DNA of 64,000 nt. It comes from Candidatus Cloacimonadales bacterium. GTDB lineage: Bacteria; Cloacimonadota; Cloacimonadia; Cloacimonadales; JAIOQZ01. Position numbers: made by a program. The stretch is taken from NCBI GenBank assembly GCA_963662655.2, contig CAXXTU010000002.1, positions 384,001 through 448,000 on the forward strand, read 5' to 3'. Within the stretch, counting starts at the first letter, position 1. Each line of letters starts with the position of its first letter. Positions 27,001 through 33,000 of the stretch are shown piece after piece.

Positions 27001-30000
27001 TGACTGAGGTTTCTGCCGATTTTCAAGCGGAATGATTGCGTCATTTCGTTCTTCAGGAAGATACCGAGGCTAAGGAATTTGTATTCGGATTCCATGTCCC
27101 GGATAATCATGCTCAGGCACTCCTGAAGCGTGTTGAGCTCCAGAAGGCTTTTCATGAGCTGGTCGTATTTCTGAAGTTTTAACGGCATAGCGTGCTCCCT
27201 TGTTGTTGGCTCAATTACTGAGAATGCTTTTGATCTTTGCGATGATCATATCGATCCCAATGCGGTTGTGTCCGCCCTCGGGGATGATGATATCTGCCTG
27301 ACGCTTGGTCGGTTCCACAAACTGGATGTGCATCGGGCGCACCGTGTCGCGGTATTGGGATATGACAGAGTCCAGGCTTCTGCCACGTTCGTTGATGTCG
27401 CGCTCGATGCGTCTGAGGATGCGGATGTCCGCGTCCGTATCGACGAAAATCCTGATATCCAGTTCATCAAGAACCTGGGCGTTCTCGAATATGAGAATCC
27501 CTTCGACGATGATGATTTTAGTGGGATTCCGCGGAATGGTCTGGTGTTTTCGAAGATGTTCATGGTAGTCGTAAACCGGTAGTTCGATAGGGATATTGTT
27601 CTTCAGGCTTCGAATGTGTTTCAGGAAAAGTTCCGTATCGAACGCGTCCGGGTGATCGTAGTTGATCCGGCAGCGCTGCTCGTATGGTAGGTCGGGGAAC
27701 GAACGATAATAGGCATCCTGCGGAATGATGCTGAGGTGCTCGCCAATCTCATGCTCGATGGCCGAGGCGATCGATGTTTTCCCCGAGCCGGTTCCACCAG
27801 CGATTCCGATGACGACGGGACGTTTCATTTATTCGTACTCCTGTGTAGCGACGTTCATGTTAAAATAGATTATGGATTGCCGTGAAAACGTCAAGAATTT
27901 CCTTTATAATTTCATTGCGAAGATGGCTTTGCCATACTCTACGGATAAAAATTTACTATCGGATTTTAAATGAAGCGAGTAAAATCGCGATTTCCCGCAC
28001 GATTTTGGCGTTGACAGATTGAACTGAATGAAAAGTTTCGCTTTGGAATATTTCGTGCAAATTGTACGTACGAGCACGGAATCGATGACTTCGAGGAGGA
28101 ATTGTGAAGTTACGTCAGGTATGCATGATATTGACCTTATTGATGATAGTGAGCTCCAGCCTTTTTGCCGGTAACACGCTCGATGAGCGCACACAGGAGC
28201 GATACAAGGATTACCCGCTCTCGATACCGCACTGGATGACGGGTGAAGAGCTGGATCGAATCGATACAATCGGTAGAGATTTCTACGTTACCGATCCACC
28301 GCCTGCGCCGATCCGGCAGATTGCCGAGTTCGAGCCGATGTACGGTGGATTGATCCGCTATCCGCTGAGCATCCCGACTTCACTGGTTGTCGAGATGTCG
28401 CAGGATGCGATGGTTGTCGTGATTGCATCGAGTCAATCGCAGGCAAACAGTGCGACATCGCAGTTCAACAACGCCGGCGTGAACATGGACAACGTGGAGT
28501 TTCTGATCGCCCCAACCGATATGCAATGGACAAGGGATTACGGTCCGTGGTTCATTTTCGACGGCAACGACGACATGGCGGTCGTGAATTTCCCCTATAA
28601 CCGTCCGCGTCCAAATGACGATGACATCCCGATCGAGTATGCCGAGGCATATTCGCTTCCGTTGTATGGCATGAACATCATCCATACCGGCGGCAATTAC
28701 ATGTGCGATGGCCTGGGACAGGCTGTTTCGACCGATCTCGTTTATGAGGAAAATTCGATCTCCAACGATACGATCCACCAGTTGATCGAAGATTACTGCG
28801 GGATTACCAATTATCATGTGACCGCCGATCCGCTAGGCGATTACATCAAGCACGTGGACTGCTGGGGCAAGTATCTCGATGTGGACAAGATTCTCATCGG
28901 GCAGGTGGCGCAAAGCGATCCCCGATATGAAGATTACGAGGCAATCGCGGACTACTTCGCCAATGAGACAAGCTCGTGGGGAACTCCCTATCAGGTTTAT
29001 CGAGTGTTTTCACCGGGAGGAGACTACACCCCGACTCCGTACACCAACTCGTTGATCCTGAACAACAAGGTTTTTGTGCCGCAGTCGGGAAGTCAGTACG
29101 ATGACGACGCGATCGCGGTGTACGAAGAGGCGATGCCGGGTTACGAGATCGTCGGGATCAGCTACTCCGGCTGGTACGACACCGACGCACTTCACTGCCG
29201 CGTGCACGAGATTCCGGACGAAGATATGCTCTACGTCCATCACATGCCGATTCACGGCGAAGTCGGATCGATGCAGGACGTGGAGATTACCGCCTATGTA
29301 CACCCATACAGCGGCCAGGAGCTTGTATCCGATTCACTCCGGGTGTTTTACAAAATCGCAGGTGAGACGGAATGGCATTCAGTTGCCATGACAAATGCCG
29401 ACGATGAAAATTACACGGCAACCATCCCTGGGGCGGTTCCGAACTCGGAGGTTATGTATTACATCCGTGCGCTGGACGAAGCGGGGAAGAGTGCGAACCA
29501 TCCGTACATCGGCAAGTGGGACCCGCACACATACACAACCGGCACCGATACCGAATTCCCAGGCATCGAGTTTGATGAAATCGCCGATACACCGATCAAC
29601 GAGCTCCCGCTGAACCTTTCTGCGATCGTTACCGACGATGGCGGCGTTGAAACCGTTGAGATGCGGTACATGATCAATGCCGTTGCTCAAGTTCCGCTCG
29701 CGTTTACCCTTTCCGATTCTTTTGAATCGGTGTGGAACGCATCCTTTCATCCGGAAGATATCGAAGTGAACGACTTGATTCATTACCGGATTGCGGCAAT
29801 CGATTACGCCGGAAACGAGACGGAGATTCCCGAAAGCGGCTATTACAGCTTCACGATTGATTCGCCATCTTCGATTGACGACAACGAAGATACGCTTCAA
29901 GGCGATCTGCTGCTGGGCAATTTTCCGAATCCATTCAATCGATCTCAGAGTGAGCAAACCTCCGTTCGCTTCTATCTGGCGAATAACCAGAATGTGGAAG

Positions 30001-33000
30001 TCGCTGTGTTCAACATCAGAGGGCAGTTGGTGAAAAGCCTGCATGCCGGCAAGATGGATCAAGGTTATCACGATATAAGATGGAATGGTCTCGATACAAA
30101 GGGACGAGAAGTGTCTTCTGGTGTTTATTTCCTTAGAATGAAGACGTCCGGGAAATCTACGATCAAGAAAATGATTCTGTTCAAATAAGGCAAAATGTGT
30201 TTTAAAGCCCAGTCGTATATCGCCTGGGCTTCTCTTTTTTAGCTCGAGGCGTGAGCAGGTTCGTTCGATCTCTCTTTTCAACGTGGTCTTCCACATCATA
30301 TTTTTTTTGTTCGATAGTTTCAATGATGTGGTCTTTCACGTTGAAAAGGGAGATCGGGCGAAGATGCCACGCCGATTGATCAGCAATTACCAGAGAAGGT
30401 CAATACCCTCTTGATGTGTTTTGTTCGACCATCGTGGAATCTTCGCTTTCCCGCCCCTCCGTCGTGTAACGACACGTCTCCGAGATTCATCCGCATTGAG
30501 TGTAGTTCTATAATACAACGTGTATCGACACGACTACGGGCAGGGAAAGCGAATCTTCTCACGACTCGATCCATCTTAACTGGTAATAGCAATATCTGAA
30601 TGAAACATATTTTGCGATGAACTAAATAAAGCATTGACAGATAAATACAATTACATCACGATACGGATGCGGTTACATAAAGCTTGTAACAGCAGAGGAG
30701 GCACGAATGAGGTATGTAACTCTGTTAGCCCTATTGTTTGTTTCGACAATTTGCTTTGGTTATAACTGGCAGCAGATCATCAACATCGATCGAAATGTCA
30801 ACGCTGCCGCTTACTACGTGGGGGACTACACTTACTACGGAGCATACGGTGCAGACAACATTCTTTATGTTGATAACAACGGTCTTTTGGCAAGCTATGA
30901 AGCATGCCTGCCAGTTTGGGATATTCTGGTATTAGACGAAAGCACATTTCTCTTCGTGATGGGAGACGGCTCGTATTCGGATGGGCTTTACCTGATGAAT
31001 CTTGCAACGGAGGATTTCGAAGTAGTTGACTGGATGTATTGCCCCACATTCATCGAGTACTGTGACAACAACGGTAAGTATTACTGCGGTGGTTATTCCG
31101 GACTTTGGGAATCATGGGATGGCGCAGAATGGAGCCGCGTCGAGCAATTCAATCAAATGAATTGCTACGCGATAACCTGGCGGGGCGATTACATGGCTGT
31201 AGCAACCGACGAGGCAATATACACCTCCAACAATGGGGGAGTTAGCTGGAGCGTACAGCCGTATGCCCCGAGGGTTGAAGATTTTGCATGGTCACTGGAT
31301 GGCGCTGTGCTCTTTGGGATTTTCCCCGGCGAATCGTATTCTTCCGGACTGTGGCGTTCAATGAGTCACGGCGTGAACTGGGAAGTTGTGATGTACGATG
31401 TGATGATGTCCAGCGTTCATGTAGATATCAGTGGAGAAGTATTTGTTGGTTACGATACGGGCGGCGTAGGTATCATGAACCTCCAGTTGGGGCAACCAAC
31501 CATGATCAACAGCGGTTTACCCAGCTTGAATGTCAACAATCTCACCGATTTCCCATTGTACGATTGCCCAGCCGTTCTTGCATGCACATCGGCAGGTGCG
31601 TTCGTTGTAACCGATTACTCGATGGGGGCCGATGACAGCACTGCTCCATCCATCGGAAAGGACATGAAGGTTTACCCCAATCCGTTCAATCCCGAAACGA
31701 CGATCGAACTTGATCTCCCTGTTTCTCAAAATGCCGAGGTGAGGGTCTTCAATGCACGCGGCGAAATCGTTCGCACGCTAGATAAATCAATTGGGGCGAA
31801 CAGCGTTGTCTGGAATGGCCGGGATTCCCGCGGTAAGGCCGTTGGATCGGGGATTTATCTGTTCGTTGCCGAAATCGGTGGTGATCGACTCGTTCGCAAA
31901 GCCGTCTTGATGAAATAGTGCCTGAACATCCATACCTTTCATGTTATAATATTTCAGCCCGGGAGAAGCTTCTCGGGCTTTTTTGTTGACATCACACACC
32001 ATGAAATAAAATTACAAATTCGATCAATGTAAGTGACTGAGAGGATATATGAAGCTTTCCCATATCGTTATCTGCACTCTGATTACGCTTGTGATACTAA
32101 CGTTCTCGGGATGTGGAAGCAATGACAAGGTTACATCGGTGAACGACGACAACGATACCCCCGATTCCACATTCACCATTGAAGACCTGCGCTTCGGCAC
32201 CGACGATACTTTCGAGGCGGTGACATGGAATCTCGAAACCTTCCCCAAAGCGAACAATACCGCGACGCTCGCAGCCACGATGATCGATGCGATGGACGTC
32301 GATTTTGTGGCATTTCAGGAGATCGAGGACTCGACAGCCTTCAATACGCTGGTTGCAGGACTGGAAGGCTGGCACGGGTGGAGAGCCACGAGCGCTCAAT
32401 ACGATATCAACCTCGCGGTAGCATACAGTGAAGCGGTGACGCTTGAAAATGTCTATGAAATCTACACGCACAACAGCCGCGAATTCCCCCGGGCTCCGCT
32501 CGTTGCGGAAATCCGGTGGCGAGGTCGGGACATCGTTCTGATCGATCTGCATCTCAAGGCTCTGGGCGATAATCATATCGACGAGAGCGATTCGTGGGAC
32601 GAAGAGGTTCGCCGTCGGGACGCCGTCAATCTCCTGAAGGAGTGGATCGACGACAACCATCCGCAGGATCGAGTCATCGCGCTGGGCGACTGGAACGATC
32701 AGCTCCAGGAGTCCCAATCGACCAACGTGTTCTGGAGTCTGCTGCAGTCGGATGACTACTTGTTCGCCGACCTCGAGATCGCGGAGACGGGAAACATCGA
32801 CGAGGTTTCCTACCCCATTTACGCTTCCCATCTGGATCACATCCTCATCTCGGATGAGCTCATCCCCGTATTCCAGAGTGGAGCATCCGAAATCCACATA
32901 TTCTTGATTGAGGACGCACTCGACGGCGGCTGGAACGAATACGAGGACGACCTTTCCGATCACCGCGCTGTGGGCATCAAACTCGATTTTTAACAGGAAA

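Follow-up and report, generated by a model that had tools for sequence, protein, structure and literature searches.

The window, a 64,000-nucleotide stretch of DNA from a free-living Candidatus Cloacimonadales bacterium (genome G000), carries a gene for an orthologue of the secreted peptidylarginine deiminase of Porphyromonas gingivalis (PPAD), and a second orthologue elsewhere in this genome lies in an operon with a gene for an Arg-gingipain (RgpB-type) protease. On balance, the evidence is taken to favour, by a little, an ancient two-step module of Arg-gingipain and PPAD. In Cloacimonadota, environmental Bacteroidales and sediment archaea its two parts would have been joined repeatedly, as operons and as single 'cut-and-citrullinate' enzymes with both functions. 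The gingipain-PPAD operon and fusions are new. The PPAD-family enzyme, in which all 15 mapped active-site residues are kept, probably turns the C-terminal arginine of peptides into citrulline and ammonia outside the cell, likely just after cleavage by a protease of the Arg-gingipain type.

The PPAD gene and its protein

The window gene starts with GTG, immediately preceded by GAGGAGG. It is solitary, with no protease gene as a neighbour; it is divergent from a gene of the uridine kinase family, and the next gene is 519 bp away. Scanning for promoters and terminators yielded counts close to those of shuffled sequence (4 vs 3.8 and 5 vs 2.4), and these were set aside. Pfam recognized PAD_porph (residues 94-371), FlgD_ig and Por_Secre_tail (607-691) in the protein (Table 1), and the extra domain ahead of the sorting domain is probably a beta-sandwich. 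In P. gingivalis, A44 is the first residue of mature PPAD (PMC4487231). Arg58 of the window protein aligns with PPAD Arg43, directly before the mature N-terminus, and its position holds R or K in 84 of 126 stand-alone orthologues; it is likely the Arg-gingipain maturation site.

Table 1. Features of the window gene and of the second locus (C2, a contig of the same genome)
Feature	Position	Strand	Basis or remark
PPAD orthologue gene (P0001), 694 aa	28104..30188	+	ORF call, Pfam, PDB search
Predicted Sec signal peptide, residues ~1-22	28104..28169	+	Sequence and hydropathy
Predicted propeptide with Arg58 as last residue	28170..28277	+	Alignment with PPAD Arg43
Catalytic pentein domain	28278..29222	+	Alignment and model; residue roles from PMC4487231, PMC4893104
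PPAD-type IgSF domain	29223..29543	+	Aligns with 4yt9 in sequence and in model
Extra domain, not in P. gingivalis PPAD	29553..29873	+	No Pfam match; fold from sequence pattern
T9SS type A C-terminal sorting domain (CTD)	29910..30185	+	TIGR04183 39.5 bits (cut-off 23); PF18962
PPAD paralogue	C2:3139887-3141521		FN3-like tail
Operon, RgpB-type gingipain gene and PPAD paralogue	C2:3139887-3143701		

The survey's finding had been that both genes encode PPAD orthologues and not agmatine deiminases. This is supported, with the residue set, the carboxylate clamp, the IgSF domain, trees and scores all in agreement, and the paralogue was found where it had been placed. Against PDB 4yt9 the window protein gave an E-value of 1.1e-114 over residues 60-483, which bears out the reported 1e-114 across the catalytic and Ig domains, and the best match other than PPAD reached 5.6e-20. 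The reported identities to P. gingivalis PPAD, 43% and 41% over about 430 aa, were reproduced by a hand count of the alignment (186/429 columns for the window protein and 173/424 for the paralogue); BLAST against the full-length protein (L232, 556 aa) gave 43.6% over 431 and 38.9% over 475, respectively.

All 15 mapped active-site residues are kept in both proteins. Those of the window protein (W142, D145, R167, R169, T195, G197, Y247, I248, H250, D252, C253, N315, T360, D361 and C365) correspond in this order to W127, D130, R152, R154, T180, G182, Y233, I234, H236, D238, C239, N297, T346, D347 and C351 of PPAD. They include the catalytic C351/H236/N297 (C365, H250, N315), the guanidinium-binding D130/D238 (D145, D252) and the carboxylate clamp R152/R154/Y233 (R167, R169, Y247), and the roles given in the survey match those in print (PMC4487231, PMC4893104). 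Among 173 high-scoring relatives, R152, R154, H236 and C351 are present in all and Y233 in 168. Four literal motifs that had been given for the family occur together in 27 of the 30 loci examined; the paralogue fails YNRPRP.D because it reads YNRNRPYD, with both arginines retained. R152 was reported to be essential in PPAD, where exo-activity exceeds endo-activity ~5,500-fold, and the two arginines are also found in arginine deiminases (ADIs) and human PADs (PMC4487231).

On superposition, a structure model of the window protein, which may lean on PPAD structures in its training data, matched PPAD with a TM score of 0.94 over the catalytic and IgSF domains (rmsd 1.4 A, 429 columns). In a tree of 38 rows, P. 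gingivalis PPAD fell inside a clade of 33 rows made up of these proteins, apart from a sister family and from agmatine deiminases (support 97/96); a 72-row tree gave the same grouping with P. gingivalis PPAD, apart from agmatine deiminases (support 98).

Proposed mechanism and arginine metabolism

The enzyme would be exported by Sec and then by a T9SS-like route. An RgpB-type protease would cleave substrates after Arg and would also remove the PPAD propeptide at Arg58; R167, R169 and Y247 would clamp the newly made carboxylate, D145 and D252 would hold the guanidinium, and C365/H250/N315 would carry out the deimination. It was reported that citrullination in P. gingivalis requires Rgp (PMC4893104). 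As to purpose, the capping of Arg-ended products from the cell's own maturation and proteolysis is put forward tentatively, at slightly less than even chances: capped products would vacate the Arg pocket of the protease and lose a positive charge, and the citrulline made available to ornithine carbamoyltransferase (OTC) and carbamate kinase would come as a bonus.

The same chemistry could instead serve feeding, with PPAD replacing a missing ADI, OTC and carbamate kinase being fed with citrulline peptides, and ammonia serving to control pH. The hosts are peptide fermenters, and in an estuary sediment C25 genes make up >40% of exported peptidases and substrates with Arg at P1 rank among those cleaved fastest (PMC6752024). 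The survey had described a genome with OTC, carbamate kinase and ArcE and no ADI. An ADI (PF02274) was indeed not found in this genome, which is 98.95% complete, and OTC and carbamate kinase scored above cut-off; for ArcE, a P-loop gene is present that is called ArcE-like from its neighbour in genome G003, and NCBIfam has no model naming such a protein. Because this ArcE-like gene is present, the missing ADI is no sign that PPAD replaces it, and that role was down-weighted. ArcE gives ATP from converting arginine into citrulline, which extracellular deimination forgoes (PMC11032458). Neither arcB nor arcC lies beside PPAD genes in the loci read, and another Cloacimonadota genome (G012) retains OTC and carbamate kinase without PPAD. 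Feeding as the main purpose is hence considered unlikely, at about one chance in four, and the ATP lost through extracellular deimination is explained in full by no reading.

Linkage to Arg-gingipains

In the operon, the PPAD paralogue lies 33 bp downstream of the gingipain gene, whose product matched RgpB at E 4e-91 and Kgp at 8e-21. This protease keeps the His-Cys dyad, the S1 Asp163 and Trp284, and these pocket residues make it a likely Arg-specific enzyme. The FN3-like tail of the paralogue has no Pfam match, and an Atlas search with a best score of 0.87 provided a lead only. The genome holds PPADs and Rgp-type proteases in equal number, two of each: one PPAD and one protease carry a type A CTD, the other two an FN3-like tail. 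This arrangement suggests two co-sorted pairs.

Gingipain-PPAD fusions in a single frame were found in 38 Cloacimonadota and four archaeal genomes. They were confirmed in all of the first 11 long frames and in 27 of 28 further genomes, along with five archaeal frames from the four genomes; a long frame cut off by the start of its contig (G119) and the second frame of G130, with an internal PPAD domain but no C25 domain, were counted as misses. One family supplies 32 of the 38 bacterial fusions. No fusion was found among 80 GTDB loci and the listed Bacteroidales frames, both of which had been ordered by how closely they resemble the unfused gene. The set D163/H211/C244/W284, numbered from an alignment with 1cvr and which we take to form the active site and pocket of Arg-gingipain (Asp163 being S1), occurs in 41 of 42 fused proteases and in all nine tandem proteases checked.

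These links could be a by-product of shuffling and clustering among secreted proteins, with PPAD using Arg-ended peptides of any source and having no particular bond with the protease. There are up to 21 C25 domains per genome, PPAD carries many different tails across its relatives, and in at least eight loci a C25 gene not of the Rgp type adjoins PPAD, so that adjacency by itself is not specific. However, only two of the 21 C25 domains of the present genome have the Arg-specific set that nearly all fused proteases share, and linkage recurs as fusions, as Rgp-then-PPAD tandems and, in Bacteroidales, as PPAD-then-Rgp tandems; a tree test rejected a single origin shared by the Cloacimonadota fusions and the operon of the G000 type (p-AU 0.002). 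A by-product is thus regarded as improbable.

The partnership is also seen in co-occurrence, which is confounded by kinship and by a common proteolytic lifestyle. Rgp-type genes are present in all 17 PPAD-positive archaeal genomes, and none of 75 without such a gene has PPAD. For Bacteroidales the figures are 105 of 114 PPAD-positive genomes with an Rgp-type gene and 9 of 221 genomes lacking one with PPAD; 75 of 180 Rgp-positive genomes have no PPAD-type gene (39 of these lack the sister family too). Among Cloacimonadota, ten genomes have PPAD with no Rgp-type match and five show the reverse, most of them drafts; G012 (two contigs, 99% complete) has Rgp-type genes and no PPAD. Together, operon, fusions and co-occurrence uphold the proposed pairing with gingipain-like proteases.

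A role of the pair in defence, by cutting and neutralising competitors' Arg-rich toxins, cationic antimicrobial peptides among them, is very improbable: P. gingivalis PPAD was reported to neutralise innate defence proteins (PMC6212822) and a surface location is predicted, but near-universal, low-copy retention across the phylum resembles housekeeping, and no defence genes lie beside PPAD in the loci read.

Distribution and secretion

PPAD orthologues were identified in 137 of 151 Cloacimonadota genomes (E<=1e-5; of 138 matches, that of G023 is only an agmatine deiminase), with 133 of 151 in a profile search at E<=1e-100, in 114 of 401 Bacteroidales genomes and in 17 of 101 genomes of Thermoplasmatota-class archaea. 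The view that PPAD occurs in most Cloacimonadota and is not peculiar to Porphyromonas is therefore borne out. It is not a trait of Cloacimonadota, however widespread there, because Bacteroidales MAGs carry relatives closer (up to 59%) than that of P. gingivalis, and PPAD is also present in archaea.

The window protein has the features of T9SS cargo, a predicted signal peptide and a type A CTD, and genes for SprA, PorV and PorU were found in the genome. The label 'core T9SS cargo' given in the survey is nevertheless too narrow: the GldM and GldN models (PorM/PorN) had no match in G000 or G003 while matching a Bacteroidales control (G152), a type A CTD is missing from the paralogue, the fusions (neither with any CTD match) and the archaeal forms, and in G012 SprA and PorV occur together with an Rgp-type gene but with no PPAD match.

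Implications

The structure paper proposed an origin of PPAD from a single-domain agmatine deiminase by gain of the IgSF domain and CTD in a Porphyromonas setting (PMC4487231), and reviews up to 2026 place homologues in Porphyromonas only, as far as their available text goes (PMC13539308). That archaea, Cloacimonadota and Bacteroidales all have the catalytic-IgSF unit speaks for an older and general unit. As the fusion turns up in dozens of related bacteria and in sediment archaea, the likely sequence of cutting after Arg and then citrullinating is probably an old environmental tool and not a pathogen's invention. If so, archaea would gain a protein-citrullinating enzyme, C-terminal citrullination would be a common stage as proteins are turned over in anoxic sediments and digesters, and the virulence pair of P. 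gingivalis would be an inherited environmental module. The fusions directly support, at the genome level, the partnership of Rgp and PPAD, offer single proteins for probing channelling and the role of PPAD in the cell, and supply a C-terminal citrullinating enzyme from organisms that are not pathogens; in them, PPAD may also rid the protease of its own propeptide, which ends in Arg. These proteins also flag a widespread misnaming as agmatine deiminase.

Comparison with known systems

Agmatine deiminases (AguA; TIGR03380; PDB 2jer, 3hvm, 1xkn) share with the window protein the pentein fold, Cys-His-Asn, the two Asp and the Pfam family PF04371, and differ in identity (18-28%), in TM score to the model (<=0.66) and in lacking R152/R154/Y233, the IgSF domain and a signal. 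Although relatives are named 'agmatine deiminase family protein' in the sources and free arginine can be a PPAD substrate (PMC4893104), a secreted agmatine or free-arginine deiminase is hardly credible, as this multi-domain protein with an IgSF domain scores 47-48 bits with NCBIfam agmatine deiminase models whose cut-offs are 382 and 483 and has a clamp of no use to agmatine, which the true agmatine deiminases of the phylum, serving as controls (365-372 aa, with genes between those of a carbamoyltransferase and a transporter), lack.

It had been anticipated that homologues might already be in print. In Fig. S4 of Cummings et al. (2021; PMC8826395), the 'pPAD/AgD type' group with Q9RQJ2 contains B0VI91 and B0VH37 of Cloacimonas acidaminovorans, a Ca. 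Cloacimonas sp. and proteins of a Thermoplasmatales archaeon, Lentimicrobium and Caldithrix, and the text states that pPAD genes are commoner across taxa than supposed. The wider distribution was thus partly published in this supplementary tree; the available part of the paper holds no active-site analysis, PPAD/agmatine deiminase split, prevalence, gingipain linkage or fusion. A literature search, with subscription papers outside its scope, found no gingipain-PPAD fusion and no PPAD activity outside Porphyromonas in the text available.

RgpB (PDB 1cvr, 4ief), the partner of PPAD in P. gingivalis, has Propeptide_C25, Peptidase_C25 and Ig domains in common with the proteases described here, which keep its Asp163, His211, Cys244 and Trp284 and the propeptide Arg motif. 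They differ in that the protease gene adjoins the PPAD gene or both share one polypeptide, and the operon protease has Leu in place of Glu152; haemagglutinin/adhesin domains had no match in the 14 proteins scanned. P. gingivalis PPAD (Q9RQJ2 per PMC8826395; PDB 4yt9, 4ytb, 4ytg, 5ak7, 6i0x) and the window protein have in common the signal, a propeptide ending in Arg, the pentein domain, the IgSF domain and the T9SS CTD. The window protein is distinguished by its extra domain ahead of the CTD and its free-living host, the second copy by its FN3-like tail and its operon with an Rgp-type gene, and the fused relatives by their union with the protease, where PPAD of P. gingivalis is a separate 556-aa protein.

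Identity and active site

The window gene is a genuine orthologue of PPAD, P. gingivalis's peptidylarginine deiminase. Its product comprises a hydrophobic N-terminus, PAD_porph and IgSF domains, a further domain without assignment and a T9SS type A C-terminal sorting domain (CTD). P. gingivalis PPAD tops the PDB matches at E 1.1e-114 (186 of 429 columns identical, counted on the PDB alignment), and that match spans residues 60-483, so that the retention of the Ig domain is borne out. An AlphaFold2 model (mean pLDDT 93) gave a TM of 0.94 and an rmsd of 1.4 Å to PPAD, against TM 0.59-0.66 to agmatine deiminases. 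Elsewhere in the window, a 1089-aa ABC transporter (33006-36275) has a TerB-like N-terminus and a long region without assignment ahead of the ATPase.

Residue roles were taken from excerpts of PMC4487231 and PMC4893104, and the numbering was checked on full natural PPAD (L232, 556 aa). All 15 binding or catalysis residues named there are identical in both copies of the host genome (G000), which upholds the survey's finding that both are PPAD orthologues with the catalytic set kept. Across 173 distinct high-scoring sequences from the fetched loci, no change occurs at W127, D130, R152, R154, G182, H236, N297 or C351. D238 is kept by 171 and Y233 by 168, and of the five lacking Y233 three fall in a sister family.

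Features of the PPAD and Rgp-type genes in G000 (C2, contig)
Feature	Location	Strand	Remarks
PPAD orthologue	window 28104-30188	+	single 694-aa frame; frame and domain matches
Only PPAD paralogue	C2:3139887-3141521		genome search
Pocket-keeping C25 gene	33 bp upstream of paralogue		operon protease
Pocket-keeping C25 gene	C2:2634956-2638804		CTD-bearing
Short FN3-like tail	frames of the operon C2:3139887-3143701 (L001:7888-11702)		ends paralogue and its protease; no Pfam match

In a 38-row tree, a 33-row clade (97/96) takes in P. gingivalis PPAD and leaves out the sister family and the agmatine deiminases. The place of P. gingivalis PPAD within it is not firm, the nearest being Bacteroidales rows (93/91), and the paralogue clusters with the window gene (100/98) rather than the fused PPAD domains. 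The sister family (L212-L219, Bacteroidales; 26-37% identity) keeps R152 and R154 and has Gly or Asn at Y233, Met at C239 and Gly at D347. Since loss of Y233 makes room for internal arginines in human PADs (PMC4487231, in excerpt), these may by analogy be endo-acting deiminases. Archaeal L162, L163 and L164 form a third, more distant group without the full arginine clamp. Paralogues L048:11925-14393 and L049:4749-6770 have Asn at D238, a change that inactivates PPAD (PMC4487231, in excerpt), and L169:1-2682 is a duplicated archaeal fusion with both active sites degenerate; all three are possible pseudo-enzymes.

Distribution

PPAD was found in 137 of 151 Cloacimonadota genomes (G023 taken out) and not found in 14: six of family f12, three of the four of genus g5 and five drafts. 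The two f12 matches (365-372 aa, without R152, R154 and Y233) are true agmatine deiminases; the agmatine deiminase gene of G023 (f12) is flanked by carbamoyltransferase and transporter genes. Bacteroidales matched at E<1e-95 in 114 of 401 genomes and at 1e-30 to 1e-70, mostly through the sister family, in a further 42. The class of a Thermoplasmatota MAG has PPAD in 17 of 101 genomes (E<1e-78); L127, its sole annotated PPAD, carries a PKD domain and lacks a CTD. With the sister family included, 5,820 of 8,000 scored 90% clusters matched at E<=1e-20 and 1,305 50% representatives at E<=1e-30.

Association with Rgp-type proteases

Upstream of the paralogue, at 33 bp on the same strand, lies a 715-aa gene with Propeptide_C25, Peptidase_C25 and Ig domains, which matches the Arg-gingipain RgpB at E 4e-91 against 8e-21 for Kgp. 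The same tandem occurs in G033, G089, G086 and L057, and the reverse order, PPAD then directly an Rgp-like gene, in three Bacteroidales genomes chosen by eye from coordinate lists. In at least eight loci the neighbour is a non-Rgp C25 gene, which counts against a specific Rgp link. The Asp163/Trp284 pocket is kept in two of the 21 C25 domains of G000, one per tail type, so that each tail type in this genome goes with a single PPAD and a single Rgp-type protease. Several of the 21 lack the catalytic His in the alignment.

Long frames of Cloacimonadota relatives are gingipain-PPAD fusions: 11 of 11 in a first set and, among the 150 of 221 matches listed, 27 of 28 further genomes whose frames reach at least 1,130 aa. 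Fusions thus occur in at least 38 of 151 genomes (families f2, 32; f3, 3; f4, 3), three of which have the protease N-terminus lost at a contig end or in a separate frame. Of 17 PPAD-positive archaeal genomes, four have fusions and seven an Rgp-like gene directly upstream; in six no Rgp link was found within the DNA fetched. The whole protease domain is visible in 42 of 43 fused frames, and 41 of these have D163/H211/C244/W284; in the remaining one of the 42, protease and PPAD halves alike are degenerate. Of the 43 frames, 36 have each of the 12 PPAD residues that were compared; the other seven show one or two changes or a contig-end cut, or are that degenerate copy. The Arg of the PS[KR]GxxxR motif, which we take to be the inhibitory Arg of the gingipain zymogen, is present in 39/39 fused propeptides in view. 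Fused PPAD domains lack a propeptide of their own; in stand-alone PPADs the Arg43 position is R or K in 84 of 126.

Fusions account for 14 among the 150 top-scoring 50% representatives, a share biased by the profile, in which fusions supplied 10 of 28 rows. A single grouping of operon and Cloacimonadota fusion PPAD domains was rejected (p-AU 0.002; quick LG+G4 tree, group picked after the first tree was viewed). The archaeal sequences group together as a single clade, in the PPAD tree and in the protease tree alike.

With 'Rgp-type' set at E<=1e-55, a cut-off validated on G000 and six loci only, all 17 PPAD-positive archaeal genomes have such a gene and 0/75 without it have PPAD; for Bacteroidales the raw counts, which likewise ignore kinship, are 105/114 and 9/221. 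Exceptions occur in both directions.

Secretion

SprA, PorV and PorU are present in G000 and G003 and were not found in G023. Models of GldM and GldN matched a Bacteroidales control and neither G000 nor G003, which suggests a reduced or divergent T9SS; G000 has 196 CTD-like frames. PMC11285876 goes no further than allowing for T9SSs in Cloacimonadota. The FN3-like tail also terminates the Cloacimonadota fusions with ends in view. Its profile finds 42 G000 frames, nearly all C-terminally and about 40 besides the operon pair, and it may serve as another module for sorting or anchoring.

Proposed function

From gene arrangement and conserved residues, the Rgp-type protease most probably exposes a C-terminal Arg which PPAD would then deiminate. 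Excerpts on P. gingivalis report that citrullination requires Rgp (PMC4893104), that PPAD modifies the organism's own gingipain adhesins and that biofilms without PPAD have more gingipain activity (PMC6367333). On this analogy, capping of self-made Arg ends is tentatively preferred over feeding as the purpose. The idea that PPAD stands in for arginine deiminase, which was not found in G000 although OTC and carbamate kinase are present, as the survey had it, is weakened by a P-loop gene at C2:1389095, a 76% orthologue of one adjoining arcC in G003; both fit the description of ArcE, which yields ATP from Arg to citrulline (PMC11032458, in excerpt).

Comparison with known systems

The accessible text of a 2026 review limits named PPAD homologues to P. 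gulae and P. loveana (PMC13539308). That of PMC8826395 calls pPAD genes more widespread than thought, and its Fig. S4 'pPAD/AgD type' (figure text, not tree layout) has Cloacimonas, Thermoplasmatales, Lentimicrobium and Caldithrix entries. The survey's headline, PPAD as a core T9SS cargo of free-living Cloacimonadota, stands as to orthology; its novelty is in part forestalled, and its scope was too narrow, given archaea and Bacteroidales. Accessible parts of PMC11121387, PMC9559808 and PMC13260591 hold nothing contrary. The literature search found no report of a gingipain-PPAD fusion, though closed journals and supplements may hold one. P0222, a fusion with a terminal dockerin, and a PPAD with cohesin domains (L045:397-3735) point by their domains to links with cellulosome-like scaffolds. 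Gingipains were already known in sediment archaea and Cloacimonadota (PMC6461988, PMC6752024, PMC8542988, in excerpt); what is new is that bacteria and archaea have gingipain-PPAD operons and fusions.
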